Shown: positions 28,959-57,977, counted from the stretch's first letter. The stretch: DNA of 64,000 nucleotides from Bacilli bacterium (GCA_045628045.1 JAZQOV010000011.1:4912-68911), one strand, 5' to 3'. Numbers and translations: made by a program. Notes: a model not told the origin generated them from the letters alone.

Positions 28959-28963
28959 CCATT

Positions 28964-31303: not shown

Positions 31304-32157
31304 AAATAAATACTAGAATTTCAAACCAAACTTTTGATCAAGAACGCTCTTTATACGGCGTAAAAAATGCAGAAGTTTTTTCGTGCAAATTTAGTGGTCC
31401 AAATGATGGCGAATCACCACTTAAAGAAACGTCAATCATAAACGTTCATGATTGTGAGTTTGACCTCCGCTATCCTTTGTGGCACTCAACAAATTTAATT
31501 TTAGAGAATTTAAGTTTTTCTAACTTATCAAGAGCTCCACTTTGGTATGACAAAAACGTTGTTATTAAGAACACAAATTCCCAATCTCCTAAAATTTTTA
31601 GAGAATGCGAAAACATTAAACTGGAAAATTGTAAATTAGAAAGCGAAGAGCCTTTTTGGAAATGTAGCAAAATCACCGGGAATTCCTGCATATTTTCAGG
31701 ATTTTATGGCTTTTTTGCGTGTAAAAATATTTCTCTTTTTGATGTAAAATTCTCGGGTAAATATTCATTTCAATATTGCAAAAATATAAGGATTTTTAAC
31801 TCTGAAATTGACACAAAGGATGCATTCTGGCATTCCAAAAATGTTTACGTAAAAGACTCAATAATTAAGGGTGAATATATCGGGTGGTATAGCTCCAATT
31901 TAACATTTGTAAATTGTATTATTGAATCACATCAACCATTTTGTTATTCTAATAACGTAACCTTTATCAATTGCAAGATGCCAAATTGCGATTTAGCGTT
32001 TGAAAAAACGTCAATCAAAGGTAATGTTACCGGGAAAATCAATTCTATTAAAAACCCAAGGAAAGCGAGCTTTAAAGTCGAAGAAATTGGGGAGTTGATT
32101 CAAGAGAAGAAAAATAGACATGTTCATATCAAAATTACAGGTGATGTGAATAAATAA
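31285..32157 (+). CDS. DUF3737-like repetitive beta-strand protein (parallel beta-helix-like repeats)
   Basis: About 22-aa repeats of the pattern ..C.F....S.F/W.... (RYPLWHSTN, RAPLWYDKN, EEPFWKCSK, KDAFWHSKN). Start TTG 31285 or GTG 31300, overlapping the upstream stop. Confidence 0.4.
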   Translation: MEDTFVKINTRISNQTFDQERSLYGVKNAEVFSCKFSGPNDGESPLKETSIINVHDCEFDLRYPLWHSTNLILENLSFSNLSRAPLWYDKNVVIKNTNSQSPKIFRECENIKLENCKLESEEPFWKCSKITGNSCIFSGFYGFFACKNISLFDVKFSGKYSFQYCKNIRIFNSEIDTKDAFWHSKNVYVKDSIIKGEYIGWYSSNLTFVNCIIESHQPFCYSNNVTFINCKMPNCDLAFEKTSIKGNVTGKINSIKNPRKASFKVEEIGELIQEKKNRHVHIKITGDVNK

Positions 32158-33891: not shown

Positions 33892-34099
33892 TACTTAATT
33901 CCAAAAATTACAAAAAAATTTCCTCGATGAATTCGGGGATTTTTTATTTCAAAACGAGCAGCTATTGTCGGATCAATGTCTATAAGAACTTATAGTAAAT
34001 ATGTGAAAAATGTGTATGATTACCTATGGTAATAATTAGTATTGTATTAGATAAAATTTGGTAGTATAATTACTTTGTAAAAAATTTAGGAGGAACGAT

Positions 34100-37000
34100 A
34101 TGACTAAACTTTTTAAAAAGATTAAGTTGTTCTTGTTAGTCTCTGTCGCCGGCTTTATGGGCTTAGCTACTGCCGCTGGTGTCAAAGGCGCAAAAGCAGA
34201 CGCAGAACCAGAAACAAAGTTAGTTTCACTTGGTAGCACTGCTGCAACAGGCACAAACTTAACAGCAGGGGTTACCGAAGAAGCAGACGGTTTCCTTGTT
34301 GAGGTCGCAGATTCATATGCGGCAAAATACGCAACAAAGGTTGGCGCAAAACTCGTTAATCTTGCTGCAGATTCATTCAGACTTGAAGATATTTGCTTTG
34401 AGTTAGAAAACGAATCAGAGGATAGGTACTTTACAAAAGCCTTCCGTGCTGAAGGAGAAGCAAAGAGAAACAGCAAATTCGTTGCTGCTGCTACAGATGC
34501 TGGATTCAGTCTTGTAGGCTCAAGCGATAACATAAAACTTACCAGCTTCATGAAAGAAGAAATTAAATCTGCTAATTATGTTACCGTTGATGCAGGCTTC
34601 GGTGGTTATGCTGAATACTTAAAGTATGCAGTTAATAATTTAATCGAAGGCAATCAAAAGGTTGAAATTAACGGAATCATGGAATTATTGCTTCAACCAA
34701 TCAACAAGATTCTCGAAGAAGCAGTTAAATCAAACGAAGTTACTAAAGCAATCTTTGAAGTTGTTGATGAACTCATTGATGTTGATCTCGTTAAATTATT
34801 AAACGTTGGTGATGCAAAGAAGGCAGTCAGCGATTTTGTTAAACTTGTTAATGAAATGCTCGCTAGCTACTTCAATAGCATTGACACATTAACTTCAAAA
34901 ATTCGTTCACTTAACAAAGATGCAAAAATTATTGTTGTTGGCGCATCAAATCCAGTTAAAAACGGAAAAGTCAGAATTGGTGACAAGACTGTTAATGTTG
35001 GCAAATACATCGATGCAATTATCAAATTAGTTAATAACTATACTCAAATCACAACTAAGAATTCTGGTAGTTATTTCTTTGTCGATCCAGTTAAATTTGA
35101 CCTTGATACAGTCGAAGGACACGCATCAGTTGCAGAAGCAATTGACGCAGTCGTAACAGCTGGCAAATCAGCAAGAGCAGTCTTCATCGAAGATACTGTT
35201 GCTGCTATTAAGAAAGCTGTAACTGAACTTATTGATCATATTTTTGGTAAGAAAGTTTCTAAAGGCGCTATTACAAAAGGTGTCTTAAATGAAAGAAATG
35301 ATTTAACAGAATTTATTATGGAATTCTTTGATGGCGTTATCTATTCAGCCTTCCCAGGTATTGAACAAGAACACGTTGTCACAGAAATTGTTGATTTCTT
35401 TAGCGAAGATATATTCAGCAAAATCAACGCATTCGCTGTTGGTATTGTTGCAAAAGTAACAGATGAAATTATTCCTGCTGCTTTTGATCAAGTTATGACT
35501 GTTCTTAGCGGTGTTGCTTGCTATATCGAAAACGTTGTTATCGAAGCAATCAACTTTGTTGCAGCAATTCCAGCAAACATGGAAAACTGTGCAAGTGTCC
35601 AAATGATTATGGATTTCTATAATCAAACCTTCGAAACTAAAGTTAACGTCCTTGCTGATGTTCTTTCAAAAGCATTCATTGATTTAAGAGGACAAATTAC
35701 TGAAGGTGTTGGATTCTTATTTACTATTCCAGCTATTTTAACAGTTGAAATTCGTTCCGCTTTATTAGCAAAACTTGTAACTGTTTTTGTCTCACATCCA
35801 ATTGATTCATTAACAATTGCATATTACTTTAATAAACTCTTTGGAGATGATGCTTCAGCATTACTCGAAAAATTAGGTGCACTTAAAGATGGCAACGCAG
35901 TTGAACAACATATTTATAATATTTTGTTTGATGTTGATGCATTATTCAAAGGTGTTCCAGCAGATGTAGAAGGATTCTTTGCTCAATCAGATCTTCTCAT
36001 TGCAAAAATTGTCAGAGCTCTTGATGGAATCGTTGCAGAAATTCATTCAGAAGTTGCTCCAATGATTGCCGAAATCTTTGATACAGTTGTTGAAAATATT
36101 CAAAAGGTTATGCCACATGAATACTTATTAGTTTCAGAAATTGATGCTAATGAAAACATTCACTATTATGCAGAATGTCAAGATTGTGGCTTCCGCGTAG
36201 AAGTTTATCCAGAATATACTTGGAAAGTTCTCGAAGATGATTATGGAAATGGCGTTGGCATTGGTTGTGATGTTGAATTTACATTACCATCAGTTCGTGG
36301 CGAAGAACCAGTTGTCATCAAAGGCTATGCAGTTGGTGCTCCTAGAGAAATGTCTACTAATCCATTCTTAGAGATGGAAGTTGTTGAAATTCCAGAAATT
36401 GAATTTGGCGATTACGGTGTAGTCGTTGATCAAACTCCAGGTGTTGCTAAATTCACTGTTGAACATGTCTATTTCGAAGAAAATGATGAATATGTTGACG
36501 AAGTTTACTTCGATGAAGAACTTTGCTTAGATTTCGTTCTCGATCCTATTTGCTATTTCGATTCTGGATATTATTATCAATCTGTTGCAAAATTTGACGC
36601 ATACACTCTTCTTGGCGATGAATTGTGCTACATTGGTACAGTTAAATTTGAAGGAAAAGTTAATGCAGAAAGCCTTAAATTAGATCTTGAAAACAAGATT
36701 GCAACATTCGAGACCGTTTATGGAGTTGATGAATTAAGTAGCACATTCTCCTTAGCACATAGTTACGGATATACACCATACGTTAGCACTTATGAATTCG
36801 ACGATGAAACAGGTGTCTTAACAGCTATTGGTACAATTGTTACAGAAGGTGGCAAAAACTTCGATTATGAAGAAAGCGTTAGCTTTGCAGATGGCACACT
36901 TCATTTCTATGATGAAGATCAATATGATGAAGATGACAATCTAGTTTATGAAGAAGGTTTCACTGCTGAATTTGAAGTCTTCGGCACACAACAAATTTCA

Positions 37001-38488
37001 TATCACATGGAAGATGTTGAATATGTTTTCGACAAGAAAGAGGCCACATACACAGCAAGCGGATATGTCACATCTAACAACGTTGGTGATCAAATCCAAT
37101 TCTATGTAGAAGAAACCACTGATGCATATATTGCAAAGAAAACAACTCCAGCCGGATTCTGCATTTGCATGGACTTCGATTTCCCAGGATTCGCTGATTA
37201 TTGCAAATTATTACAAGTTTCAGGTATTCAATATCGTTGGGATATGGAAGAATTAAGCTGTTTAGCAACATTCTATGTTACTTCCCAAACTGATTCTGAT
37301 ATTAGTTTCATGTTCTATGAATATGCCACTGTTGAAGATTATAGTGGCGTTGAAGTTACTGCTGATGGTAGACTCTGTGCTGATTTCACTTTAGTTCCTG
37401 ATTCATATATGGGTGCAAATGTATCTGAAGTTTACACACGTATATATAATAAGGACGCAGGCACAGCTGTTGAACATTCAAACTACTATATTGATGGTGT
37501 TAAAGCTGGTGAAACAAATGTTGTTTACGAATTAGAAGGTGAAGCTTTAGTTCAACATTATATGGACGGATCATGGGCAGTTGGCTATGTTATTGCCGGA
37601 ACCGAATATGCTATACCATTCTATGATTTAGAAGTCGAAGAAATTCCTACATTTGTAAAAAATGAAAACGGCAATTTCGAAGCAACAATGAAATTCGTTG
37701 ATCCACTTGGACAACACTTTGAAGGCAAATATCTTTTACAAAATGCTATCTATGCTAATTCACAAATTGCAGAAGGCTCTTCAGTTGAATACACATTAAG
37801 TGAAGACGGATCAACATTCACAGCATCTGTCACCTTAGTTGATATATTCGACTTTACTTACATAGTTGAAGAAACAGTACCAGCAGTTAGTGAATATAAG
37901 ATTCTTCCAGACGGAACAACTGTCTTTACGTATAAAAACGCAGTAGACTTTACCTTAAAGAATTTATTCAAAGGTTGTTCTGAAGAAGTTAGAGTTTCAG
38001 GAACCCCACTTGCTGTATTTGCAGAAGGTGGTAAGGCATCTGTTAGTGGTGTTGGTGTTTCATTCAGCGAAGGTGCATTAGAATCATTAAGCGATTCTGC
38101 TGCATTAGTTGCTAATACAACAAAGACCGAAGATGGAACAATGCTTGATATTAAGATTGAAGATCTTGGTAGAGAAGTTGAATTTGATGGTGAATGTACA
38201 GTTACAGTCCCATTTGATGAAAAAGTTCCAACTGGTTGTGAAGTCAAAGTTTATTACCAAGGTGCTGATGGTGAAGTTGATATGGGTGCTGTCTATGATA
38301 AGACAACAGGTACTGTATCATTCAACACTACACACTTCTCACAATACCGTGTTGTTGTTGAAAGAGTCGGCTTAGGCTTATGGTGGATTTTAATCGGATT
38401 TGGCATTCTTCTTGCTGTTGCAGCAGTTTGCTACTTCGTTATTATTAGACCACGCACAAATAAGAAGGCTAAAAAAGGGAATAAATAA
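34100..38488 (+). CDS. Giant (1462 aa) surface protein with N-terminal signal, degenerate SGNH-hydrolase-like N-domain, acidic central region and C-terminal TM anchor
   Basis: Perfect RBS AGGAGG. Signal MTKLFKKIKLFLLVSVAGFMGLATAAG. LVSLGSTAATG aligns with the GDSxxxG block of the two paralogues but lacks Asp and Ser. VTVDAGFGGYAEYL aligns with their block III. C-terminal LWWILIGFGILLAVAAVCYFVIIRPR. Confidence 0.7.
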   Translation: MTKLFKKIKLFLLVSVAGFMGLATAAGVKGAKADAEPETKLVSLGSTAATGTNLTAGVTEEADGFLVEVADSYAAKYATKVGAKLVNLAADSFRLEDICFELENESEDRYFTKAFRAEGEAKRNSKFVAAATDAGFSLVGSSDNIKLTSFMKEEIKSANYVTVDAGFGGYAEYLKYAVNNLIEGNQKVEINGIMELLLQPINKILEEAVKSNEVTKAIFEVVDELIDVDLVKLLNVGDAKKAVSDFVKLVNEMLASYFNSIDTLTSKIRSLNKDAKIIVVGASNPVKNGKVRIGDKTVNVGKYIDAIIKLVNNYTQITTKNSGSYFFVDPVKFDLDTVEGHASVAEAIDAVVTAGKSARAVFIEDTVAAIKKAVTELIDHIFGKKVSKGAITKGVLNERNDLTEFIMEFFDGVIYSAFPGIEQEHVVTEIVDFFSEDIFSKINAFAVGIVAKVTDEIIPAAFDQVMTVLSGVACYIENVVIEAINFVAAIPANMENCASVQMIMDFYNQTFETKVNVLADVLSKAFIDLRGQITEGVGFLFTIPAILTVEIRSALLAKLVTVFVSHPIDSLTIAYYFNKLFGDDASALLEKLGALKDGNAVEQHIYNILFDVDALFKGVPADVEGFFAQSDLLIAKIVRALDGIVAEIHSEVAPMIAEIFDTVVENIQKVMPHEYLLVSEIDANENIHYYAECQDCGFRVEVYPEYTWKVLEDDYGNGVGIGCDVEFTLPSVRGEEPVVIKGYAVGAPREMSTNPFLEMEVVEIPEIEFGDYGVVVDQTPGVAKFTVEHVYFEENDEYVDEVYFDEELCLDFVLDPICYFDSGYYYQSVAKFDAYTLLGDELCYIGTVKFEGKVNAESLKLDLENKIATFETVYGVDELSSTFSLAHSYGYTPYVSTYEFDDETGVLTAIGTIVTEGGKNFDYEESVSFADGTLHFYDEDQYDEDDNLVYEEGFTAEFEVFGTQQISYHMEDVEYVFDKKEATYTASGYVTSNNVGDQIQFYVEETTDAYIAKKTTPAGFCICMDFDFPGFADYCKLLQVSGIQYRWDMEELSCLATFYVTSQTDSDISFMFYEYATVEDYSGVEVTADGRLCADFTLVPDSYMGANVSEVYTRIYNKDAGTAVEHSNYYIDGVKAGETNVVYELEGEALVQHYMDGSWAVGYVIAGTEYAIPFYDLEVEEIPTFVKNENGNFEATMKFVDPLGQHFEGKYLLQNAIYANSQIAEGSSVEYTLSEDGSTFTASVTLVDIFDFTYIVEETVPAVSEYKILPDGTTVFTYKNAVDFTLKNLFKGCSEEVRVSGTPLAVFAEGGKASVSGVGVSFSEGALESLSDSAALVANTTKTEDGTMLDIKIEDLGREVEFDGECTVTVPFDEKVPTGCEVKVYYQGADGEVDMGAVYDKTTGTVSFNTTHFSQYRVVVERVGLGLWWILIGFGILLAVAAVCYFVIIRPRTNKKAKKGNK

Positions 38489-38556
38489 TATAAGAGGAAA
38501 AGGGTTACGATAGTTTGTCGTAACCCCTATCCCGTATATCGGAAAGGAATTAATAT

Positions 38557-41500
38557 ATGAAAAAATTATTACAATTATTACTTGCGCTTACTATGGCAAG
38601 ACCAGCTGCATATGCTGAGAAAAATAAGACATTCAATTATGTTAGTTTTGGTGATTCCCAAACTGCCGGCTTAGGCTTACATGGTTGCGTTCCAGAATGG
38701 TTCTATGAAGATCCTTCGTATTATTGGACAGGAACAAACCCAATCACTGGAGAAAAAATAAAGAGTGGTTACTTCGCATCGGGATATTATTTCCAATCAG
38801 AAGATAGCTATCCAAGATTAATTGAAAAGGCATTACAAAGAGAATACAAAAATGTAAACTTCAAACCTGCCGCAATTAATGCATTTAGAGCCGAAACTCT
38901 TAAACATCTTCTTTACGGCGAACCAATGACTCATGTCTATGATCAATTTATGGCATCTGACTATATTAGTGGTTCTGAAGCAGAAAGACATGAAACTTAC
39001 ACAATTAATGGTAAGGTTTATACTTACGATAAGGCAAAAACAAGCGTAAGTGCTGAAATGATTAGCGCAGTCGAAAATGCTGATTTAATCACATACGATT
39101 TAGGCGCAAACGATTTCGGTGGATTCTTTATGTTTGGATCTTTTGCTTCTTACCTTGAAAAATACGGAATTAAAGTCACAGATTTATATGAACTTATTCC
39201 AGCCGAATATGCTGATATTTATTATTCAACAAAAGGCTATATTTTAAATATGATTCTTGAATCTGCTGGAGAAGCTATTCCTGCAGAATTACTTTCATCA
39301 CTTACATCATATGTTGATATGTTTGTTTATTCATTAGTGTCATTCATAGTTAACTTTGATGCCACTATGGAAAGAATTTATACATTAAACCCAGATGTTG
39401 AAGTTGTCGTTATGTCAATTCAAAACATCTATAAAGATGCACAAGCAGCAATGGGTGATATGGTTCTCCCACTCGGTGACATCATAGGTGTATTAATGAC
39501 TATTGCTAATGCATATACATCATTCTTCTCACCATATGCTAATAAGTATTATTATGTTGATTTTGGTAATGAACACGTTCACGATCATATCGATGAACTC
39601 GAAACATGGTCATCACAAAGATCATTCTTAAATACTTCACTTACACGTTATGCTGAATTAGAAAGATTAATGGGTTATGGTGAAATTATTGATTCATTCA
39701 ATGTTTACTCAGAACTCTTAGTTGAATATACTCTTAAGAACGAAATTGCAGCAAGAGAAAACGTTATCGTCGGTGGAAGACAACTTACATTTGACGAAAT
39801 CGTCAATTCAAATTCCTATGCTTTAAGAAGCATTAAGAATAGAATTCAAAAAGAATTAGCTGTTAAAACAAAACTTTCTTATTATGCTCATGCTAGAGCA
39901 TTTGTATGTTCATTTGAAAACAAGACCATGGCCATGGAAGCCACATGGGGCGATCCAGCACTTGATCAAATCAGTGTTATCGCAAAAGAATATCAAGATA
40001 AATTTAATCCAAATCTTAGCGAAGAAGCTAATATCTTAAATGTTATTAATGATCTTGATAAAGCAATTACTGCTGAATATTCAGGAGCAGAGAACGCTGA
40101 TAAACAAGCTGCATTATTTGCACAATTATTAGGTACTGGTTATGCTTATGCATTTATGTGCCACAGATCTGTTGAAGGTCATAAAGAATGTGCAGAAAGA
40201 GTACTTGCAGCATTCCACGCAAAGAATAATAAGAGAACAACTGGTAAAGAAGGCTTACTCGCTGCATTACCATCAATCTTATTTAACTTTAATAAAGAAA
40301 AGAGCTATCAAACTGTAGCTCAAGTAGTTGCAGCAATTACCCCATTTATCGTTGGTGGTAAGATCAATGAAGGCTATATCGTTTCAACACTTGATGAACT
40401 TCTTGCCTTTATCGATAACGCTGAACAATACGTTACAGAAAACGAAGAAGCTGTTGTAAATGTTAAGACAGCAATTGATAGCTTAGTTGAACAACTTGGT
40501 TTAACTGAACAATTTGCAGAATTACTTGCAAGCAATCCATTATTAAAAGAATTCTACGAAAATACTGAAGAAATGCTCATCAAGACATTCGGTGATGCAA
40601 GACTCGCATTAAAGATTGTCGAATTTGTTGAAATACTCAGAAATACATTCGTTGGAAGAGATATTGCTGTTGCAGTTTCATATGCAGTTGGCGAAGTCTT
40701 AAAAGATCTCGGCATTGCATTAGCTGAAATTGTTAAGGTTGCAGAAGGCATTGGCGAAAAAGTTCATGAAGCAATTATGAACACTCCAAGTGCTATCTCA
40801 TATGCTATTAAAGCAATTGAAGAAGCTCTTGGCGTTGTCGCTGATAAAGTAATGGCAGCTCTTGACTATGCTGGCCACGTTGCTGGTGAAGTTAAAGATA
40901 AAGCAATTGAAGTTTCAATCGAAGCACTTCATGCAATTGATAAGGCATTTGATTGGACAGGTGATCAACTTAAGAATTTAGTTGAATTCATTGCTAAAAC
41001 ATTTGTTAAAACTGTAAATGCTACTGAAGAAGCTGCTAAAAATGCTGCTGTTGCAACATATAACGCAGTTAAATATGTAGCAGAAGAAGTTGGTAATTCA
41101 GTTGACTTTGTCTTAGGAGAATTATCAGAGATTCCAGGAATCATTGGCGAAGCTATAGGCGATGCCCGTGCATTTACTGAATCAGTCTTATCATGGGCAG
41201 GTAAACAAGTTAGCAAGGCATTCTCTGCTGTTGTTGATGTCCTTGATAGTATTCCAGGCGCAGTTAAAGAAGGTGCAGAATTTGTTGCCTCAGTAATTGC
41301 TGATCTTATTGGAAAAGCAAAAGATGCTATCGGTGATGTTGTCAGTTTCGAAAAAGAAGTTGCTGAAAAAATCTATAATGCTGGTAAATCAGCTGTAGAA
41401 TATGTTGTCGATGAAGTTTCTAAGGCAATTCCAGAAGTTGTTGAATTTGTCGAAGATGCAGCAAAATTCGTTTCTGACGGAGTTAAAGCATATGTTAATT

Positions 41501-42129
41501 TTGTAAGAGAAACCATTGCTTCAATTCCAGGTGCTATCCGTGATGCAGTTGATAATATTGGCGAAGTTGCAAGTAAGATCTTCAACTCATTATCTGATTT
41601 CTCAAAAGAAGCAATTACCACAGTTATTAATGTAGCTGGTGAAATCGCTGGTAATGTTGAAGATGCAGTTAAAGCAGGAGCTTCATTTATTGCTGATGCA
41701 GTTTCAGAAATTGCTGGTAATGTTGGCGACTTCATTGGAAGCGTTATTGAATTCTTTACAGGAAATAGAAGAGTTACAAGAGGTGCTCCAGTACCACAAG
41801 AATATCATGGTATTGAAGCTCTTGAAGAATTCGTTGCAAAGATTCAAGAAACATTAGCAAAAGCTGAAGATGTCAGCCTTGAAACTGTTGCTGTGCTTCT
41901 TGGTTATGTTACCAAAGTTATTCCGGCAGCAATTCAAGAAGTCTATACAATGGCTGTTAAAGGAGTTAATGAATTTGTCATTGCTTCTTATGAAAAACTT
42001 GCAAGCACTGTAATGAGCGAAGTTTGTGGCTTTGTTAGTTCAGTTGCTCCAGTTGCAATGAGCGTCTACTCAGACCTCTTAGCAGCATTATCAAGTGCAT
42101 TCATTGCATGGGCTCCATTATTCAAATAA
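38557..42129 (+). CDS. Secreted SGNH/GDSL-family hydrolase (lipase/esterase-like) fused to about 800-aa Ala/Val/Glu-rich amphipathic repeat region
   Basis: Signal MKKLLQLLLALTMARPAAYA. Block I YVSFGDSQTAG. Block III DLGANDFGGF. A DxxH-like HDHID. C-terminal repeated (A/V)xxAxxEVxxxA heptad-like segments. Confidence 0.75.
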   Translation: MKKLLQLLLALTMARPAAYAEKNKTFNYVSFGDSQTAGLGLHGCVPEWFYEDPSYYWTGTNPITGEKIKSGYFASGYYFQSEDSYPRLIEKALQREYKNVNFKPAAINAFRAETLKHLLYGEPMTHVYDQFMASDYISGSEAERHETYTINGKVYTYDKAKTSVSAEMISAVENADLITYDLGANDFGGFFMFGSFASYLEKYGIKVTDLYELIPAEYADIYYSTKGYILNMILESAGEAIPAELLSSLTSYVDMFVYSLVSFIVNFDATMERIYTLNPDVEVVVMSIQNIYKDAQAAMGDMVLPLGDIIGVLMTIANAYTSFFSPYANKYYYVDFGNEHVHDHIDELETWSSQRSFLNTSLTRYAELERLMGYGEIIDSFNVYSELLVEYTLKNEIAARENVIVGGRQLTFDEIVNSNSYALRSIKNRIQKELAVKTKLSYYAHARAFVCSFENKTMAMEATWGDPALDQISVIAKEYQDKFNPNLSEEANILNVINDLDKAITAEYSGAENADKQAALFAQLLGTGYAYAFMCHRSVEGHKECAERVLAAFHAKNNKRTTGKEGLLAALPSILFNFNKEKSYQTVAQVVAAITPFIVGGKINEGYIVSTLDELLAFIDNAEQYVTENEEAVVNVKTAIDSLVEQLGLTEQFAELLASNPLLKEFYENTEEMLIKTFGDARLALKIVEFVEILRNTFVGRDIAVAVSYAVGEVLKDLGIALAEIVKVAEGIGEKVHEAIMNTPSAISYAIKAIEEALGVVADKVMAALDYAGHVAGEVKDKAIEVSIEALHAIDKAFDWTGDQLKNLVEFIAKTFVKTVNATEEAAKNAAVATYNAVKYVAEEVGNSVDFVLGELSEIPGIIGEAIGDARAFTESVLSWAGKQVSKAFSAVVDVLDSIPGAVKEGAEFVASVIADLIGKAKDAIGDVVSFEKEVAEKIYNAGKSAVEYVVDEVSKAIPEVVEFVEDAAKFVSDGVKAYVNFVRETIASIPGAIRDAVDNIGEVASKIFNSLSDFSKEAITTVINVAGEIAGNVEDAVKAGASFIADAVSEIAGNVGDFIGSVIEFFTGNRRVTRGAPVPQEYHGIEALEEFVAKIQETLAKAEDVSLETVAVLLGYVTKVIPAAIQEVYTMAVKGVNEFVIASYEKLASTVMSEVCGFVSSVAPVAMSVYSDLLAALSSAFIAWAPLFK

Positions 42130-42152
42130 TTTGAGTAATTAAACAAATACAA

Positions 42153-42185
42153 AACCAGATCGTTTCTAGCGGTCTGGTTTTTATT
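42153..42185 (+). terminator. Rho-independent terminator
   Basis: AACCAGATCG-uuucua-GCGGTCTGGTT followed by TTTTTATTTT. Confidence 0.7.
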
Positions 42186-42190
42186 TTGCT

Positions 42191-42264
42191 TAATTGAGAG
42201 TTCTTTACTTTTCTTATATTAATATAAAAAAAGCTTTTAGGCTTATTTAGGCTCTCAATTAAGA
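42191..42264. repeat. Perfect 12-bp inverted repeat CTTAATTGAGAG / CTCTCAATTAAG separated by 50 nt
   Basis: Seen directly. It lies between convergent genes. Confidence 0.6.
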
Positions 42265-42288
42265 AAGAATGTAAACTTAACCGTCACA

Positions 42289-42314
42289 ATAAGAAAAAGG
42301 CCTCTATGGGCCTT
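42289..42314 (-). terminator. Rho-independent terminator for the minus-strand gene
   Basis: Minus strand: AAGGCC-catagag-GGCCTT followed by TTTTTCTT. Confidence 0.7.
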
Positions 42315-42348
42315 AAAACATATTTATAAATAATTTTATTATTAATTC

Positions 42349-43239
42349 TTATTTAGATTTAGCACGATTAAGTAGTTTTGCTATTAATAATGAAGATAAA
42401 TATAGTTCTAATGAAACAAGTGTTGTAATAGCGAGTGTTTCTATTGTTCCTATCTTATCTAGGCTTATATGAAGAAGCATCTTATTAATTACATAGCCAA
42501 TTCCTAATCCTAATAAAGAGAATATGATTATTATTAATAATGCTTTACGAGTTCTTGGCTTTTTATCTTTTATTAAATAAAGTTTTAACGAGAATGCTTC
42601 TGCCGCTACAAGGATGATAGCGGTAATCCAATATAATAAATAAAATTTATTCCCGCCTACGTACTCGTACGAGCCCACAAGTGCGCTACAAGATCCAAGA
42701 AGTGGGATTATAAACGACAAGATTGTTGGTAAGGAGAATTTTGAATTCTTTTTAACGGAAATCATATGCTCTTTATCAAGTACAAGAAGTGGGAAGTTTA
42801 ATTCCACATCTGCGAGTTTGTTTATATCTAATTTAAATGACTCTAATTTATCAAAAGAAACATAAAGAGGATTATATTTATTTACGATTTTAATTAGAGT
42901 CTTTATTTTCTCAATTTGTTGAGCCTCTGATAATTTATTATCAGTTTTTAACATTACAAGTTCATTTAAAATCTTCTTTCCTTGATTTTCATTAAAGGAA
43001 TTTTGTGCAAAATTTGCCATGAAAAAACCAACTTTATTCATGTTAATTTTTATTTGCACAACATCATTAATTTCATTCTTGTTTGAGTCAATTATTTTTA
43101 GACCCATAACCTTATTTTTCGCATATGATTTATTTAGCGAAGAAATGAAGTCTTTATCTCTAATAACGACAATGTTATTTTCAAAACTAAATTTGCGACT
43201 TGAATCGGAAATTTGGAATGTGATTTGATTTTTTTCCAT
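42349..43239 (-). CDS. Membrane protein: cytoplasmic N-domain (about 150 aa) + 4 C-terminal TM helices
   Basis: ORF with LPTILSFIIPLLGSCSALVG, LLYWITAIILVAAEAF, ALLIIIIFSLLGLGIGYV, TLAITTLVSLELYLSSLLIA. The start is uncertain because there is no RBS. Confidence 0.45.
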   Translation of the reverse strand: MEKNQITFQISDSSRKFSFENNIVVIRDKDFISSLNKSYAKNKVMGLKIIDSNKNEINDVVQIKINMNKVGFFMANFAQNSFNENQGKKILNELVMLKTDNKLSEAQQIEKIKTLIKIVNKYNPLYVSFDKLESFKLDINKLADVELNFPLLVLDKEHMISVKKNSKFSLPTILSFIIPLLGSCSALVGSYEYVGGNKFYLLYWITAIILVAAEAFSLKLYLIKDKKPRTRKALLIIIIFSLLGLGIGYVINKMLLHISLDKIGTIETLAITTLVSLELYLSSLLIAKLLNRAKSK

Positions 43240-43504
43240 AACGATATTTTAGATTATTATCAGTTATCTTTCTATACAAAAATTTTTAAAGTTATCCGCG
43301 AAATTACCATTATTTTCGGTATAAAACGCTCATTTTTTAAACTCAAATTGAACTTTTTTGACCACAAAATATTATTTTGATTGTTATTTAGAAGACACTT
43401 AATATAAAATATTAGAGAAGTAAGATTTAGTTCATTTATTTAAATTTGTAAAAAATGGTTGTCTATTTTATAAGACAAACTACATCTTAAGGAAGGATAT
43501 CATT

Positions 43505-46321
43505 ATGAAAAAAAGTATCTCTGGAATCTTGTTAGCATCCGTTATGTCACTCGGCTTTTTAGCTGCACCTAGTACAGTTAAGGAATCAGGAAGTGCAGAG
43601 GAAGAAACAGCCATTACTTTACGCGCGAAGGCAAAAGAGGAAAGAAATTGTTTTATTTCCACTTTAGTTGAAAACATTACATCTGGGAAAACATATACCT
43701 TTAAAATTGATGGAAAGGATGTCGGTCGTTTTAGACTAACCAAATATAAAAAAGGCTGGGCAATTTCTAAGGGAACAATGTTTGTCGGCATTCAAAATAA
43801 GAGAATTGTCTACAAATTAACCCCAACTGAATGGAATTATGAAGATGGTGCATTTAGCCTCCCAGTAAAAAAAGTAAATTTTGGTTTTATCCATATTGAT
43901 ACTTCCGAACAACCAACCCAATACATTAAATCATTTAAAGTTGGTGCAAGATTAACCACCGAAAAAACTAACGTTGAAATTTATAACGTTATTCACACTG
44001 CGCACGCAATGACCGACTGGATTGATTGCGAAGATGGTGTACACCACAAGAAAGTTTGTTTAAATGAATGTGGTTACGAAGAAATTGGCGTTCATAACTT
44101 TGGTGAATTTAATAGTTCGCTTTATTGTCTTGATTGTGGCGCTATTAATCCAGGTGATCCTGAAGTTAATATTTCTGCTGCATTTAGAGAAGTAGAAACA
44201 GTCAATTATTTGAACATTCTTGTTGGAAAACCATTTAAATACACTACATATTATGCAGACGTTGATGTTTCATATAATAACGTTGGTATTTCCAAAGTTG
44301 AATTAAGAATGAATGAACAAGGCGACTTTGTCGAAGGATATAGTTGCTCACTAAATTCAAGAATCAAAACTCTTGAAGTTAGAGTTACCGATACACGCAA
44401 CAATGTTTACAACGAAGTATTCAAAAACCTCATTGTTTCATTTGATTTACAAGGTAAAGCATCAAAAATCGCTCCTATTACACATGTGGGCGAAGGCGAT
44501 AAAATCGCTGCTCCAGAAAGACCAGCTCCAACAAAAGATGAAATCTTTGCTGGCTGGTACAAAGAAGCAGAATGCGAAAATCCTTGGGATTTCGAAGTTG
44601 ATACTGTCGAAGATGATACAGTTTTATATGCTAAGTACGTTAAAGGAAATACCCTTTCAAGTGTTTTAAGCTTAAGCTATGACATCTTCCCATACGCAAC
44701 AAGCGCAACCCCAGTTCCAACAAAATCTTGGGTCAATGGCAAAGGCATTAGAGCATACATTTCAGGTGAAAACCTTGTTCTTTTAAACGGCACGAAGAAA
44801 TTAACACTTCCTCTTGCAACCGAAATGTCTATTAACGAAAACAATGAATACATCATTCAAGAAGGATCTGTTACTTGGAAATTCAACCTTCTTAGATACT
44901 TTGGATTTGATTATTTAGGATATTTTGAAATCGAAGGTTCAGAAGGCTTTGATGGTGCTTATGGTAAAACAAGTTCAAGACTTACAACAGTTATTGCAAA
45001 TGCAACAGGTATGGGTGGTTTCCCAGTTGGTGAAGCTCGTCCAGTAAATGCTTGGTCCAATGAAAAAGGAAATCGTTTATATGTAGATTCTGCTACTGGT
45101 GCAATTACAATTGAAAGCCCTAATAAAGAAGCAATTGTTCTTGAAAACAATGTTCCTGTTAATGTTTTTGATAACTATGTTATCAGAGATGAAGAAAATA
45201 ACATTAAGTTAATGCTTAACACTGAAAATGGTAAATTAACTTCTATTGAAGTTGTTACACTTGGATCATCTGAGGAAACTTCCGATTTCGGAACATTCAT
45301 TCCAGCATATGATTTAGGTAGCCTTTTAGGTACCACATTCCCAGTTACAGATATTAACAAAGCTCCACTTGATGCTTGGTTAAATGGTAATGGCGGAAAA
45401 GCATATATTGATGCAAATGGTAATTTTGCTATTGCAGATAACAACGGAATTGTTTACTCAGATTCCTTAGAAAAACCATACGTTTACAAAGATGGTTACT
45501 ATGTAAATGTCGGTGCTACTGAAGAAAATTATGTTAAAGTTGGTTATGTGGATGATGTTGTAACCTCAATTATTGTTAATGGTAGCTTTGGTAGCGGTGC
45601 AAATGGCACTTACACAGCTTTAGGAATTACTGTTTCATCTGTATTAGACACACTTAAAGTAATCTTCCCATATTTCAATGGAAATGGTGAAGTTTGGAGC
45701 AGTGCTTCTGGCGCAACAGTTTATTATGATGAAGATGCAAAAGCTATCGTTTTCAACACATTCTCACTTGCAGATACAACTGCATGTATTAGAGATGGTG
45801 AAAACTATGTTTGCACATATAAGAAAGGCTATGACAGCGCAAAGGTTACCTTTGTTATGGATAATGGAACATTAACATCAATTGTTGTTTCAGATGCTTC
45901 CCTTATGATTAGACGTGCAAATGGTGAATACGTTCCAACATCATTTATTGAAACTGTTAAAGATGTATTAGATTGCTCTAGTAGAGCATTCCCAGTTAGA
46001 TCAGCTGAAAATAATAACAATTCTTCAGCAATTCCAGAAGAAGCTTGGGAAAATGAAAATGGCATTAAGTGCTTCATTCAAAATGGCGAAGATACTCAAT
46101 CATTAGTCTTCTGTGAAGTCTTAGACGTCAAAGGCTACAAGATTGAAAAGAAAATCACTATCGACAATATTCTTGATAATATTGATCAAGCTGAAGGTGA
46201 TTATGTCTATCAATATTTCACATTTAAGATGACAAGAGGTGTCCTCTCAAGTATTGAAGTTAACTATCCACAAGGTAGCTTATATATTTCATTCAACGGT
46301 TCATATCAACCAGTTCTTTAA
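43505..46321 (+). CDS. Large secreted protein (938 aa) with signal peptide and a Flg_new-like segment
   Basis: RBS AAGGAAGG. Signal MKKSISGILLASVMSLGFLAAPSTV. ...FAGWYKEAECENPWDFEVDTVEDDTVLYAKY. The palindrome TTGTCTATTTTATAAGACAA sits just upstream, near the -10. Confidence 0.6.
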   Translation: MKKSISGILLASVMSLGFLAAPSTVKESGSAEEETAITLRAKAKEERNCFISTLVENITSGKTYTFKIDGKDVGRFRLTKYKKGWAISKGTMFVGIQNKRIVYKLTPTEWNYEDGAFSLPVKKVNFGFIHIDTSEQPTQYIKSFKVGARLTTEKTNVEIYNVIHTAHAMTDWIDCEDGVHHKKVCLNECGYEEIGVHNFGEFNSSLYCLDCGAINPGDPEVNISAAFREVETVNYLNILVGKPFKYTTYYADVDVSYNNVGISKVELRMNEQGDFVEGYSCSLNSRIKTLEVRVTDTRNNVYNEVFKNLIVSFDLQGKASKIAPITHVGEGDKIAAPERPAPTKDEIFAGWYKEAECENPWDFEVDTVEDDTVLYAKYVKGNTLSSVLSLSYDIFPYATSATPVPTKSWVNGKGIRAYISGENLVLLNGTKKLTLPLATEMSINENNEYIIQEGSVTWKFNLLRYFGFDYLGYFEIEGSEGFDGAYGKTSSRLTTVIANATGMGGFPVGEARPVNAWSNEKGNRLYVDSATGAITIESPNKEAIVLENNVPVNVFDNYVIRDEENNIKLMLNTENGKLTSIEVVTLGSSEETSDFGTFIPAYDLGSLLGTTFPVTDINKAPLDAWLNGNGGKAYIDANGNFAIADNNGIVYSDSLEKPYVYKDGYYVNVGATEENYVKVGYVDDVVTSIIVNGSFGSGANGTYTALGITVSSVLDTLKVIFPYFNGNGEVWSSASGATVYYDEDAKAIVFNTFSLADTTACIRDGENYVCTYKKGYDSAKVTFVMDNGTLTSIVVSDASLMIRRANGEYVPTSFIETVKDVLDCSSRAFPVRSAENNNNSSAIPEEAWENENGIKCFIQNGEDTQSLVFCEVLDVKGYKIEKKITIDNILDNIDQAEGDYVYQYFTFKMTRGVLSSIEVNYPQGSLYISFNGSYQPVL

Positions 46322-46333
46322 TAAAAAATAACA

Positions 46334-48325
46334 ATGATTAACTTTGTTAAAGCGATAAAAATAATATGCGCTACTTTTAGCGCACTTACATCAATGTTTG
46401 GCATTAAGCCAAATCATGATAAAAAATACACCTATGTTTCTTTAGGTGATTCCATGTCTACTGGTTTTGGCTTTGATGACTATTATATTGACGACGAAAT
46501 CATTCCGGTTGAATCAATGGAACATTATAGACCAGAAGACGGTCATAAAAATGTTCATGGATTTTTAAGAGAGGCCAAAGAAGCTTATCCAACCTTAGTT
46601 CATTCTTATCTAAAAGATAAATATGGAGAAGAGAATGTTGAGCATATTCAATTAGCGGTTAACGTTACAAGAATTGATGATATTTATTATCATCTTAACA
46701 AAGACGCAAAAACTGACGAATTTTATCAAGCCCTTTTTGAAGATAATGGTCATGGTGATCAATGGAATGATGTTTTTGCTAATAGAGCAAGACAATTTGG
46801 TTACACTACAAATGAAGATAACAACGAAGCTGTAGTTGAAACATACGTAAATTCTATAAAGAAAGCCGATTTAATAACTTTAAATGCTGGATTTAATAAC
46901 TTTGGTTGTTTCTTTAGCGGAAAATTAGGCGACATTATTGAAGGTTTGCCTATTGCCGAAAGCTTTGGAGGTCACGACACTCTCCAAGGATTCTTAGATA
47001 GAACTGGTGTTGATCTTAATATTGGCGAAGTTTATGAGCAAATAAATGATATTTTTCATAGTTACACTGGACTTGATTTAACTTCGTATGAAAAGGTCAA
47101 AGTTGGTGGCTATAACATTAATGTTAAATATTTATTAGAACTCATTGTTACTGCCTTTGCTTCATATTGTTATTATATGAATGAGACCACTAAATTAATT
47201 TATGAATTAAATCCAGATGTTGAATTAGTGGTAATTGGATTATTTAATATCCTAAAGGGTATTAAACTTTCTGTTAATGATATAACAATTGATGTTGGTG
47301 AAATCACTAGCAAGATTTTTGAACTTGTTAATTTACATACAGCCTTAGGAACAGAATGTTCAAATAAATACAAATTCGTGGATTCTACAGATTTAAACGT
47401 TGGTATTCATGCTGAAGATATTGCTAATGGCACAATGGACGAAGAACAAGTAAGACGTGCATACATTGGCTTATACACAATGGCTAAAGAAGTTGGTGTT
47501 GATATTCCAACATTTACTATAGTAAAAGACCAAATTAATGGAGCCATGATTAATTTAGGCAATCTTGATTTTGATATCTCTGAATATATTGTTGATGAAG
47601 ATGAAAATCCATTAACTGATGCTGAGGCTTATGAGACTAAGTGGTTAGCATCATCCTTGGTGTTTGGTGAAGAGAATGCTAACAGCATTAATAGCGTGCT
47701 TAACGAGTATTATGGCGTCATTGATTCACTCTTTAATGTTCTAAAACGCGCCACAAACTCAAAAACAGTCACTTTAGAAGCTCTTTCTAGTTTAGGTGAA
47801 AGTATTTCTGTTGAACAAATTAATAATGGCGATTTTGATGGTTTAATTAATATTTATGTTCGCATTGTTATCAACAATGGAATGTGGAGTCATCCTAACG
47901 AAGAAGGGCACATTGAAATTTCAAAAGCAGTTATTGAAACACTTGAAAGTCATAAAACTGCAAAAGAAGTTGGAGAAGAAAGAATTAGAAACATTCTCAC
48001 TAACATTACTTCTGAAATAGATTCGCTAGTGGATGAGTTAAAAACTCAAATTGGAATTGAGACAAAAACACTTCTTGTAAAGTTTATTGGAGAAAAAGGT
48101 TATGAAAAAGTAATTGAAGTCTCCACAAAAGTTTATAAACTCATTAAAGAATGCATTAGAATTTTGAATTTTATAGATCAATTTTTATCTTTGATAAAAG
48201 AATACAATCCTATTCTTTATAAATTCATCGAAAATTTTAATGGTAATTTGCAAAAATATTTGGTTAATCCATTTATTAAGAAGATTTTATCTTCAAATCG
48301 TTTTTGCAATATTTTATTAGGATAA
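46334..48325 (+). CDS. SGNH/GDSL-family hydrolase, paralogue of the N-domain of 38557..42129, with helical C-terminal extension
   Basis: Block I YVSLGDSMSTG. Block III ITLNAGFNNFG. Block V MWSHPNEEGH. Weak or uncleaved signal-anchor MINFVKAIKIICATFSALTSMFG. Confidence 0.7.
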   Translation: MINFVKAIKIICATFSALTSMFGIKPNHDKKYTYVSLGDSMSTGFGFDDYYIDDEIIPVESMEHYRPEDGHKNVHGFLREAKEAYPTLVHSYLKDKYGEENVEHIQLAVNVTRIDDIYYHLNKDAKTDEFYQALFEDNGHGDQWNDVFANRARQFGYTTNEDNNEAVVETYVNSIKKADLITLNAGFNNFGCFFSGKLGDIIEGLPIAESFGGHDTLQGFLDRTGVDLNIGEVYEQINDIFHSYTGLDLTSYEKVKVGGYNINVKYLLELIVTAFASYCYYMNETTKLIYELNPDVELVVIGLFNILKGIKLSVNDITIDVGEITSKIFELVNLHTALGTECSNKYKFVDSTDLNVGIHAEDIANGTMDEEQVRRAYIGLYTMAKEVGVDIPTFTIVKDQINGAMINLGNLDFDISEYIVDEDENPLTDAEAYETKWLASSLVFGEENANSINSVLNEYYGVIDSLFNVLKRATNSKTVTLEALSSLGESISVEQINNGDFDGLINIYVRIVINNGMWSHPNEEGHIEISKAVIETLESHKTAKEVGEERIRNILTNITSEIDSLVDELKTQIGIETKTLLVKFIGEKGYEKVIEVSTKVYKLIKECIRILNFIDQFLSLIKEYNPILYKFIENFNGNLQKYLVNPFIKKILSSNRFCNILLG

Positions 48326-49868: not shown

Positions 49869-50010
49869 CTACCCCCACTTAAACATTCTATGTTTAGAAG
49901 ATGGGGGATTCCTACTCAAGAATCCTCGAGGATTCAGTGTCGATAGGCTAACCCCGTAGTTCCTACGGTTTGGTGGACTACCACTATTGTTTTTGAAGTA
50001 CTAATCTAAT
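49869..50010 (-). ncRNA. Predicted omegaRNA (reRNA) scaffold of the TnpB element (3' end of tnpB plus right end)
   Basis: Dense hairpins on the minus strand: CCCCCAUCU...AGUGGGGG, GAAUCCUCGAGGAUUC palindrome, CCGUAGGAACUACGG. Position is as expected for IS605-family omegaRNA. Confidence 0.4.
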
Positions 50011-51132
50011 TCCTTCTTTTTTGATATTAATTGCTGCATTTATATCTCTATCATGCTTTCTACCACAGATAGGACAAATCCAATCTCTATCATTTAATTC
50101 AAGACTTTTGTTGATGTAACCACAATCACTGCAAGTTTTACTAGACGGAAAGTACCTATCTACTTTTATTAATTCCTTACCTAACCATCTTAATTTGTAA
50201 TCTAGAAAATTGACAAAAGTTCCATATGCTCGATCAGATAGATTTCTGCCCAACTTCATTTTTGTATCTTTTGATTGCATTGATTTCAAATCTAAATTTT
50301 CTACAAAAACATAATCGTATTTATTTGCAATTTTTCTGGATTCTTTATGCAAAAAATCTTTCCTAGAATTTGAAATATGAAGTTGAAGTTTTCTGACTTT
50401 TTGCCAGGATTTAATGGAGTTTTTGCTACCTTTTTGGCATTTTGATGCTCTTCTGGTTAATTTTGCAAGTTTCTCCATTTCGTTTTGAAGATACTTTGGC
50501 ATATCTGCGTGATTGCCATCGCTATCGACATAAAGATGTGACAAAGAAAAATCTAATCCTATTGAGTTGTTGATATCAAGTTTTTCAAGCTTGTCGAATA
50601 ACTCGACGTTTGGATTATCTTCTTCACCAGTCAATGTCACAAAATACATGTTTGCAACTCTAGAGATGGTGACTGTGGTAAAAGAGAATGATTCAGGCAT
50701 CAAACGAGATACTACAACTTTAACTCTGCCTAATTTAGGAATTTGGATTTCGTTACCATCAAGGCGGAGGTTATTGTTGATTTTCATAGTTGTGTAGCTA
50801 TGATCATTTCTTTTGGATTTAAATTTTGGAAAAGAACCTCTATGTTCAAAGAAATTAATATACGCAGCATGTAAATGAATAATGGCTTGTTGCAAAGCAA
50901 CACTATCAACTTCTTTTAAGTATTCATACCCTTCTTTGTAATCAGGAAGTATTTTGACTAAATCAAATTTTCTCAATTTAAAAGAAGGATCTTCCGCGTG
51001 CTTTTCGACACACATTTCAAGAAAATCATTATAGACTTGGCGAACGCATCCTAAAGTTTTCTCAATTTGTTGTTTTTGAGAAGAATTAGGATAGATTCGA
51101 AATTTATAAGCTTTCTTTATTTTCTTTTCCAT
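49984..51132 (-). CDS. tnpB: TnpB (IS605 OrfB family RNA-guided nuclease)
   Basis: N-terminus KAYKFRIYPNSSQKQQIEKTLGCVRQVYNDFL. RuvC-I IGLDFSLSHLYVDSDGN. RuvC-II YVFVENLDLKSM. Zn-finger CSDCGYINKSLELNDRDWICPICGRKHDRDINAAINI. Confidence 0.9.
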   Translation of the reverse strand: MEKKIKKAYKFRIYPNSSQKQQIEKTLGCVRQVYNDFLEMCVEKHAEDPSFKLRKFDLVKILPDYKEGYEYLKEVDSVALQQAIIHLHAAYINFFEHRGSFPKFKSKRNDHSYTTMKINNNLRLDGNEIQIPKLGRVKVVVSRLMPESFSFTTVTISRVANMYFVTLTGEEDNPNVELFDKLEKLDINNSIGLDFSLSHLYVDSDGNHADMPKYLQNEMEKLAKLTRRASKCQKGSKNSIKSWQKVRKLQLHISNSRKDFLHKESRKIANKYDYVFVENLDLKSMQSKDTKMKLGRNLSDRAYGTFVNFLDYKLRWLGKELIKVDRYFPSSKTCSDCGYINKSLELNDRDWICPICGRKHDRDINAAINIKKEGIRLVLQKQ

Positions 51133-51239: not shown

Positions 51240-51887
51240 TTAGATAAATCTAAAACCTGAGCCTAGTTCTAAAAGGAATTCTTTCATGTGCGTTATAATA
51301 CCTTTTTCAATTTCTTTTTCCCTAAGGTTAAAACCTTTTTTGAAGAAATTAATTACAATCGGATCTACCATTACATCTTTTGGTTCAACAATCTGATTCC
51401 CAAGAGTGGATAATTGATTCTTTTTTGCCTCTATATTTTCTTTTGAGCCCAGTAAGATTCTTTGATAGTATCCCGATTGTATTTGTCTTTTTAAATCCCT
51501 GACAGACCATCTTTGTTTTGCACACTCTATTTCATAGAATTTTCTTTCTTCATCATTTTTTACATTTAGAAGACAAAAGTAATGCCCCCATGATAAAGTG
51601 GGAAACAGTGTTTCCCAATTTTTATATATAATATAAAAATTTAACATTGCTTTAATGTTTCTTCTTGAATACCCAGAGCCGAATTCTTTGGTTAGCTCAT
51701 TAGAAATTGAACTAATCGTGCGCTTTTTATAATCGCTTTTTCCTTTATTGGAGTCGATGTCTTTTTGAATTTGTTCCCCTATATACATATAAAGCTTAAG
51801 TAATTCAGTATTAACGTTATATATGATTTTTGCCTTCGTTGTTTCTATTGCATTTTTTAAATTTATTACTAGTTTATTTTCTTTCAT
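51240..51887 (-). pseudogene. N-terminal fragment of the YhcG/DUF1016-family nuclease gene (ends ...LGSGFRFI* at the IS junction)
   Basis: DUF1016 N-domain pattern ...TLSWGHYFCLLNVKNDEERKFYEIECAKQRWSVRDLKRQI... RBS GGAGGAGG. Confidence 0.65.
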
Positions 51888-57324: not shown

Positions 57325-57325
57325 T

Positions 57326-57895: not shown

Positions 57896-57925
57896 AAAGA
57901 GATTGGCTGCTACCAATCTCTTTTT
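57896..57925 (+). terminator. Rho-independent terminator (in repeat unit 1)
   Basis: AAAGAGATTGG-cugcua-CCAATCTCTTT followed by TT. Confidence 0.8.
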
Positions 57926-57977
57926 CATACTTTGGAATACAGACTGTAGAATTAATCATGAATTTTGCAAAAATGCA

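Follow-up and report, generated by a model that had tools for sequence, protein, structure and literature searches.

Does an acyl-CoA-ligase-like gene that stands beside a row of secreted proteins with hydrolase-like domains form a functional unit with them, and what would such a unit do? This question is raised by a stretch of 64,000 nucleotides from a Bacilli bacterium (GCA_045628045.1, JAZQOV010000011.1:4912-68911), hereafter the window, which has a G+C content of ~33% and uses the standard genetic code. The genes concerned encode the ligase-like enzyme, the three proteins W1, W2 and W3 with N-terminal domains of SGNH type, and an accessory protein, P4:

32170-33891, plus strand: AMP-binding acyl-CoA-ligase-like enzyme, 573 amino acids (aa), cytoplasmic, with the Pfam domains AMP-binding and AMP-binding_C
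34100-38488, plus strand: W1, 1462 aa, with a degenerate SGNH-like domain (E=8e-96 with the family hidden Markov model, HMM)
34211-35167, plus strand: predicted pseudo-enzyme domain of W1, recognised from the catalytic columns of the alignment
38557-42129, plus strand: W2, 1190 aa, with an expanded SGNH domain (family HMM E=2.6e-141)
40228-42126, plus strand: tail of W2, aa 558-1190 (633 aa), delimited by composition, helix prediction and periodicity
43505-46321, plus strand: P4, 938 aa, secreted and non-catalytic, with a module that is elsewhere fused to SGNH domains of the family
46334-48325, plus strand: W3, 663 aa, with an expanded SGNH domain, starting 12 nucleotides after the end of P4

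As set out below, the three N-terminal domains belong to a large family with the SGNH fold, members of which abut a homologue of the ligase in six other lineages. Some of these proteins may therefore act as surface esterases or lipases, aided by others that are non-catalytic, and the neighbouring ligase may capture the acids that they release.

The SGNH-like proteins and their accessory parts

An earlier note on this DNA had quoted block I and block III motifs of SGNH/GDSL hydrolases from the proteins beginning at 34100, 38557 and 46334, and these motifs are present there: block I reads L44-G-S-T47 in W1, F31-G-D-S34 in W2 and L37-G-D-S40 in W3, and block III reads A165-G-F-G-G169, G183-A-N-D186 and G186-F-N-N189, respectively. 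The similarity was reproduced by BLASTP, which aligned W2 with W3 (E=1e-23, 379 columns), W1 with W3 (E=4e-17, 368 columns) and W1 with W2 (E=5e-8, 88 columns), in each case at 24% identity, and by an alignment of 11 N-terminal domains, in which the Arg of block II and the block V motif 'H-P-x-x-x-G-H' are likewise in register. Because the BLASTP similarity reaches well past the two short blocks, the N-terminal domains of W1, W2 and W3 are, as judged by sequence comparison, paralogous.

The profile of the 11 domains matches two solved GDSL esterases, 8ik1 (E=3e-6) and 7e16 (2e-5), and blocks I, II and III, the 'NPD' strand and block V are collinear between the profile and these structures. Moreover, the AlphaFold model of W3 residues 1-540 (predicted template modelling score 0.71; predicted local distance difference test, pLDDT, 85-98 in the core strands, with the insert at 382-503 poorly predicted) and its structure comparison revealed a three-layer alpha/beta/alpha fold with a five-stranded parallel sheet. 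The four structures that match best are GDSL enzymes of lipase or esterase type, and transferase structures rank well below the hydrolases. Some distant relatives have precomputed PF13472 or PF00657 matches. Thus, the designation of the domains as SGNH/GDSL-like holds for the fold, as attested by family profile and structure comparison, although direct Pfam and NCBIfam scans stayed below threshold. Its fold and three of the four signature residues place the domain in the SGNH superfamily, where the curated Pfam and NCBIfam models do not cover it.

The domain comprises ~500 aa instead of the usual ~200 aa and contains two helical insertions, one of ~100 aa between block III and the next strand and one of ~150-170 aa ahead of the catalytic His. 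In W2, a signal peptide precedes the domain (aa ~22-557), which carries Ser34, Arg111, Asn185 and His536. W3 has an N-terminal hydrophobic leader, the domain at aa ~30-540 with Ser40, Arg113, Asn188 and His520, and a helical C-terminus of 123 aa. All three proteins had been described as giant and secreted, a description that W3, with only 663 aa, does not fit in size. The GDS block with the catalytic Ser is present in W2 (G32-D33-S34) and W3 (G38-D39-S40) and replaced in W1 (G45-S46-T47); likewise, block III of the type G-x-N-D with the oxyanion-hole Asn is found in W2 and W3, whereas W1 has G-F-G-G.

The closest solved SGNH/GDSL family II lipolytic esterase is EstL5 of Geobacillus thermodenitrificans (PDB 7e16 / 8ik1). 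In contrast to this enzyme of ~200 aa, the domain described here is enlarged by the two insertions, escapes Pfam and NCBIfam at their thresholds, is carried by surface proteins of 660-2800 aa, and lacks the Asp at position -3 from the block V His. Block II also differs: at the position of the Gly in the EstL5 motif 'RGLR', W3 has Val, W2 Ala and W1 Ser, followed two residues later by a nearly invariant, family-conserved Arg. Since the oxyanion contact is made by the backbone NH, the sequence change at this Gly is compatible with activity. With the Ser nucleophile, the oxyanion-hole Asn, the His and the family-specific Arg all in place, W2 and W3 are predicted to be active serine esterases or lipases.

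How widespread and how uniform is this domain? A full HMM search against 1.84 billion cluster representatives (50%-identity clusters) yielded 3133 proteins with E<1e-3, 1477 with E<1e-10 and 716 with E<1e-30. The members, from gut and rumen Firmicutes, are often 1000-2800 aa in length, and some have several matching stretches. A residue census was taken over 153 family proteins, that is, 144 of the best 150 representatives and nine homologues that the initial search had returned. In block I, 100 domains have GDS and 73 have GAS, the Ser being retained in ~97%; 195 of 207 domains retain the block II Arg, GxNN predominates in block III, and the 'HP' of block V is found in 148 of 158 domains. Given this strong conservation of catalytic residues, the family looks like one of active enzymes, with W1 as a rare exception. 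Literature searches covering the family, its pairing with the ligase and comparable scavenging systems returned no description of either the family or the pairing.

Within the family, W2 groups with P0127 and P0133, and W3 with P0019, P0002 and P0018, while W1 is an offshoot of the W3-like group. A recent tandem duplication of W1-W3 was ruled out, as each of them has many closer relatives in other organisms than in the window; by these relationships the three appear to be ancient paralogues rather than recent duplicates.

A second, partial SGNH-like domain, often without block I, is present in the C-terminal half of many giant members and absent from W1-W3. Its protein coordinates are 671-956 in L004, 854-1090 and 923-1138 in L006, 953-1181 in L016, 1079-1298 in L019 and ~1200-1560 in L021/L022.

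W1 has lost three catalytic positions: the Ser is replaced by Thr47, the block III Asn is gone (GFNN to GFGG) and the block V His is a Leu. The block II Arg is kept, and the second helical insert is absent. Behind its signal peptide, the protein consists of the SGNH-like domain (aa ~38-356), a helical region (357-685) and a beta-rich region (686-1420), followed by a C-terminal transmembrane anchor (1422-1452) and a basic tail. Its C-terminal ~160-330 aa are common to P0155, P0018 and P0032. The closest relatives of W1 are degenerate as well, with GST in P0062, the His replaced by Thr in P0155, and GDT together with His to Met in P0032, and both P0155 and P0032 also have the C-terminal domain and membrane anchor of W1. 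Since degeneration and C-terminal architecture are thus shared, the sequences point to W1, P0155 and P0032 as a conserved dead-enzyme subclade that is maintained in a non-catalytic state, rather than to simple decay of W1. The suggestion of the earlier note that W1 is a pseudo-enzyme, made from the change of GDS to GST, is therefore borne out as far as sequence can tell.

W2 extends beyond its SGNH domain in a tail that had been described as ~800 aa of Ala/Val/Glu repeats with possible apolipoprotein-like lipid binding. The actual length is 633 aa, and a self-BLAST of the tail revealed no sequence-level repeats. The composition (Ala 14.5%, Val 13.3%, Glu 10.1%) and the amphipathic nature were confirmed: the tail is predicted to be almost entirely helical, and its hydrophobicity has a phase-coherent periodicity of 3.64 residues (power 485, compared with ~73 for the 95th percentile of shuffled sequences), which recurs with 3.66 residues in the tail of the homologue P0127. 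In the AlphaFold model of the tail (pLDDT 37), only the secondary structure is usable, and it is a nearly continuous helix. The likeness to apolipoproteins fared less well, as apart from the amphipathic periodicity it comes down to Pfam matches with ApoLp-III or Apolipoprotein, all below threshold, for W2, P0003 and the giant protein of L019; for PF07464 (ApoLp-III), the W2 tail reached 16.7 bits against a threshold of 36.3. A periodicity of 11/3 = 3.67 residues is typical of apolipoprotein-type and other hendecad helices. The tail thus resembles exchangeable apolipoproteins and apolipophorin III in helicity and in a periodicity of 3.64-3.66 residues kept in phase over hundreds of residues, and differs from them in having no detectable 11- or 22-residue sequence repeat and in its Pfam score. 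This periodicity would fit binding to a lipid surface or a coiled-coil stalk equally well and is not specific to apolipoproteins.

The gene of P4 (43505-46321) had been missed in the earlier note. P4 gave no match to the SGNH HMM of the family; its aa ~40-310 are homologous by phmmer to modules located C-terminal to the SGNH domain in P0158 (1.8e-26), P0030 (three copies), P0121, the L021/L022 giants and P0008. Because its module is fused to SGNH family members elsewhere, we assign P4 to the same system. It also contains an Flg_new (Listeria-Bacteroides) repeat at aa 311-377 (E=2.9e-11). In each of the gene pairs W1-W2 and P4-W3, a non-catalytic protein rich in beta structure is combined with a catalytic partner.

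Cys-x2-Cys-Gly knuckles are located at the starts of beta-rich regions, at aa 688-708 of W1, at aa ~180-215 of P4 and in the C-terminal half of P0004. With sequences such as 'AECQDCGF', 'CLNECGY ... CLDCGA' and 'CKECGK', they may represent a small disulfide or metal-binding module.

The ligase and its recurrence beside the family

The ligase-like enzyme has no hydrophobic segment and matches Pfam AMP-binding with E=6.7e-68, in addition to AMP-binding_C. The ANL core motifs are readable in its sequence (TGGTTGSPKG, GYGLSE and a C-terminal GK). Its best NCBIfam models are long-chain-fatty-acid--CoA ligases, all of them below cut-off (PRK06187, 279.6 bits against 476), and the closest solved structure is FadD-1 of A. 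fulgidus (3g7s), followed by luciferases, 4-coumarate ligases and malonyl-CoA synthetases. The relatives of the enzyme are annotated merely as 'acyl--CoA ligase'.

The association of this gene with the SGNH family was approached from both sides. The survey starting from the SGNH proteins covered the metagenome contig L003 and 13 species-representative loci of metagenome-assembled genomes (MAGs) from gut and rumen, retrieved by a genome scan with a 4-sequence alignment; these loci are labelled Eubacteriales, Oscillospiraceae, Ruminococcaceae, Clostridia and Bacilli and range from 29 to 62% G+C. A full-length ligase homologue (36-40% identity) adjoins a family member in L003, L005, L011, L013, L014 and L015, and such loci frequently contain two to six tandem paralogues. 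The survey starting from the ligase comprised seven homologues, chosen blind by the length of their contigs alone. All four Clostridial ligases among them (L019, L021, L022 and L023; 43-45% identity) are immediately followed by a family member (HMM E 1e-53 to 1e-66).

According to the ligase identity matrix, the linked loci represent six lineages besides that of the window, with 42-60% GC and ligases 36-45% identical to that of the window. L011, whose ligase runs off the end of its contig and is missing from the matrix, would make a seventh. Direct adjacency on the same strand was observed in the window, L003/L005, L011, L013-L015, L019, L021/L022 and L023, and is absent from L017, L018 and L020. 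As a gene with one or a few copies in each genome abuts a given family this often, we infer that the adjacency cannot reasonably be due to chance. The link is real, yet neither universal nor obligatory.

The genes beside family members in loci without a ligase offered no recurrent substitute: a Pfam scan of 10 of them yielded camelysin, cohesin, GH78, LGT, BspA-LRR and CHAP/SH3, each without recurrence. Likewise, none of the loci examined showed an MBOAT or AT3 acyl-translocase or a carrier protein next to the module.

One of the linked contigs, L005 (JAFVZR010000072.1), with three paralogues and the ligase, is labelled as a MAG of a Candidatus Methanomethylophilaceae archaeon. The module is of bacterial type and its ligase is 94% identical to that of L003; it is probably a mis-binned contig rather than an archaeal cluster. 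In L017, the relative with 65% identity, a DUF3737 gene (6105-6953) is located 3 kb upstream of the ligase with a GH31 gene in between, and within the low-GC lineage DUF3737 has stayed near the ligase more constantly than the SGNH genes have.

Gene order and neighbourhood in the window

The remaining features around the genes described above are the following:

28053-28958, plus strand: protein with an N-terminal hydrophobic segment, the first of two upstream of the DUF3737 gene
28964-31303, plus strand: protein with an N-terminal hydrophobic segment, the second of the two
31285-32157, plus strand: DUF3737 protein, directly 5' of the ligase gene
33921-33939, plus strand: terminator-like hairpin with a T-run just 3' of the ligase stop codon, a consensus match only
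42151-42181, plus strand: strong terminator-like hairpin of 14 pairs, 3' of W2
42349-43239, minus strand: membrane protein, 296 aa, between W2 and P4
48304-49440, plus strand: PTS_EIIC_2 family membrane protein (Pfam E=6.9e-77), its start overlapping the end of W3

The ligase and W1 genes lie on the same strand, 209 nucleotides apart. Between the ligase hairpin and W1, a promoter-like site is followed by a strong AGGAGG ribosome-binding site, both recognised as consensus matches only. The 296-aa membrane protein (42349-43239, minus strand) and the two upstream proteins (28053-31303) were left out of the system, since they show no family relationship and no conserved partner beyond their own species. 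The PTS_EIIC_2 protein is possibly a co-transcribed transporter or else a coincidence, and its membership of the system is uncertain. In a single further lineage (Clostridia, 57% GC; L008 2365-3465, L009 2408-3526, L010 1149-2267), homologues of it with 37-38% identity are ~5.6 kb away from a member of the family.

Much of the coding capacity of the window is devoted to surface proteins, as would suit a gut organism that is Mollicutes-like or belongs to the Bacilli. Big_2, DUF285 (known as a Mycoplasma-type family) and four Flg_new repeats are found in large secreted proteins at 4842-7997, 13132-15582 and 23891-27946. An open reading frame at ~57900-64000 (plus strand), which encodes >1860 aa including a signal peptide and is not a member of the SGNH-like family, begins just 3' of folA and runs off the end of the window. 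An IS605-type TnpB gene (OrfB_IS605 and Cas12f1-like TNB domains; 49984-51132, minus strand) adjoins a DUF1016/YhcG nuclease gene (51240-51887, minus strand) that here encodes 215 aa. The metagenome contig L001, which is nearly identical, has no TnpB gene, and its DUF1016/YhcG gene encodes 335 aa; therefore, a recent TnpB insertion truncated this gene in the window. An S-adenosylmethionine (SAM) riboswitch (Rfam RF00162, 51.8 bits; 17473-17559, plus strand) is located in a stretch without long open reading frames. The next long one on the plus strand encodes a Fic/DOC protein at 18156, which is unusual downstream of an S-box. Two Fic/DOC family genes are found less than 7 kb apart (11827-12711, minus strand; 18156-19214, plus strand).

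A possible surface esterase system and its alternatives

From the observed homology, fold, residue pattern, family size and recurrent ligase adjacency we arrive at an explanation that we regard as about an even bet: SGNH esterases or lipases at the surface work together with non-catalytic helpers, and the neighbouring ligase captures their acid products. W2 and W3, being exposed at the cell surface or secreted, would hydrolyse external esters by means of the enlarged SGNH domain. The membrane-anchored, dead W1 and the non-catalytic P4 would probably serve in binding or anchoring, and the long tail of W2, helical and amphipathic, probably keeps the enzyme attached to a hydrophobic surface or else forms a stalk. 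The freed carboxylic acids, most likely fatty acids, would then enter the cell, where the adjacent cytoplasmic AMP-forming ligase would activate them.

Several observations weigh against this explanation. With respect to the enzymes, the Pfam scan scored W2 at 20.1 bits against the Lipase_GDSL cut-off of 23.6 and gave no match for W1 and W3, and the NCBIfam scan of W1-W3 yielded no match above threshold. The canonical Asp at position -3 from the block V His is missing throughout, W2 having Phe and W3 Met at this place; the two proteins might use a Ser-His dyad or an Asp supplied from elsewhere. With respect to the ligase, seven of the 14 loci in the survey starting from the SGNH proteins, from five lineages, are without a ligase in the sequence examined, and one further locus could not be judged. 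No family member lies near the three closest ligase relatives (L017, L018 and L020; 57-69% identity, low G+C). In one of them, L017, thyA-folA comes directly after the ligase, and in the window thyA-folA is found at 56494-57820; the whole block from W1 to the gene of the SpoIIE-type phosphatase is therefore absent at that position. Moreover, co-transcription of the ligase and W1 in the window is doubtful, because the terminator-like hairpin, the promoter-like site and the strong ribosome-binding site intervene. The adjacency in this genome could thus be secondary or accidental. Finally, one family member has a dockerin and another lies beside a cohesin protein, which hints at plant-polymer esters over lipids. 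The functional link between the SGNH proteins and the ligase that the earlier note had drawn is accordingly supported by comparison with six other lineages and weakened by the unlinked closest relatives and by the hairpin and promoter-like site in the window. Its further idea of a wall-less, fatty-acid-auxotrophic host was not upheld: the same module is found in Clostridia loci with Spo0A, sortase or CHAP/SH3 wall-hydrolase genes, and nothing in the window bears on fatty-acid synthesis.

The dockerin and cohesin observations, together with the rumen hosts, would also suit surface esterases acting on plant or glycan esters (acetyl, feruloyl/coumaroyl, cutin, suberin), with the ligase activating the acid set free, such as a hydroxycinnamate or hydroxy-fatty acid. 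We give this explanation a modest minority chance. The organism of the window shows no cohesin or dockerin, Pfam finds no carbohydrate-binding module in W1-W3 or P4, the four best structural matches are of lipase or esterase type, and long amphipathic helices are atypical of carbohydrate esterases.

Somewhat harder to sustain, and in our view unlikely, is the notion that the proteins are adhesins or variable surface proteins with an incidental SGNH-like domain, and that the ligase is an unrelated housekeeping enzyme beside a surface-protein island. Giant surface proteins with DUF285, Big_2 and Flg_new domains do indeed crowd the window, W1 is catalytically dead, and the ligase has terminator-like and promoter-like signals of its own, while its nearest relatives are found in different contexts without family members. 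On the other hand, the catalytic residues are strongly conserved across the family, and the ligase abuts a family member in six other lineages, including all four blind-chosen Clostridial ligases, which is very unlikely to be due to chance.

Could the SGNH domains transfer acyl groups rather than release them? Like the domain described here, those of DltD, OatA and PatB have the SGNH fold and lie outside the membrane, and the dlt system, with DltA, also pairs with an AMP-binding ligase. Extracytoplasmic acyltransferases that decorate a surface polymer, with the ligase supplying the activated acyl donor, are nevertheless improbable, given that no MBOAT or AT3 acyl-translocase or carrier protein accompanies the module in the loci examined and that the transferase structures rank well below the hydrolases. 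Secreted phospholipase-type effectors against competitor or host membranes, whose amphipathic tail inserts into the target bilayer, could invoke the phospholipase A1 (4hyq) and the lysophospholipase PlaA among the fold matches and the long amphipathic tail of W2, but are highly improbable, as no adjacent immunity-like or secretion-system gene was seen, the C-terminal transmembrane or dockerin anchors keep the proteins on the producer, and the linkage to the ligase would be left unexplained.

Returning to surface esterases coupled to the ligase, related arrangements are known. In S. aureus, the Geh lipase together with FakAB combines a secreted lipase with fatty-acid activation, and in many Firmicutes the fatty-acid kinase takes the place of an AMP-forming ligase. 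Scavenging by lipases plus fatty-acid activation has been inferred for lipophilic corynebacteria (C. resistens; PMC3350403). The logic would be the same in both cases, with secreted lipolytic enzymes freeing fatty acids and a cytoplasmic enzyme activating them. However, the genes of these organisms are scattered and are linked by metabolic inference or experiment, whereas the link here is a conserved adjacent gene pair. Another counterpart is P65 of Mycoplasma hyopneumoniae, a low-GC host-associated bacterium: the protein has ~600 aa, with GDS near the N-terminus and the His block far downstream, and thus an expanded SGNH domain. Going by its description, it resembles W1-W3 in being a surface-exposed GDSL enzyme with an expanded domain; it is a lipoprotein, whereas W1-W3 are without a lipoprotein Cys box, and we know of no ligase pairing for it. 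This lipolytic surface protein is cited in PMC3626624 and PMC6634062.

A more far-reaching version, which we put forward tentatively and with a chance of perhaps one in a few, is that of an undescribed, widespread lipid-harvesting module of gut and rumen Firmicutes. Giant SGNH-lipase proteins would dock with an apolipoprotein-like tail on lipid droplets, lipoproteins or membranes, assisted by dead paralogues, accessory binders and a dedicated acyl-CoA/acyl-ACP ligase. If true, this would constitute a route for exogenous fatty acids in Gram-positive anaerobes that is separate from the fatty-acid kinase pathway.

SGNH esterases as such are well known; what is new here is a large branch that escapes the standard Pfam and NCBIfam models, resides on surface proteins of very large size and recurs in association with a single ligase family. 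The family profile could be used to annotate many giant proteins now called 'hypothetical'. Moreover, the dead-enzyme subclade and the separately encoded P4 module suggest multi-protein surface assemblies rather than single enzymes. If the coupling serves the capture of fatty acids, the ligase and its SGNH partner would be a concrete, testable gene pair, and the coupling would show how many uncultured gut anaerobes obtain lipids from the diet, the host or their neighbours.

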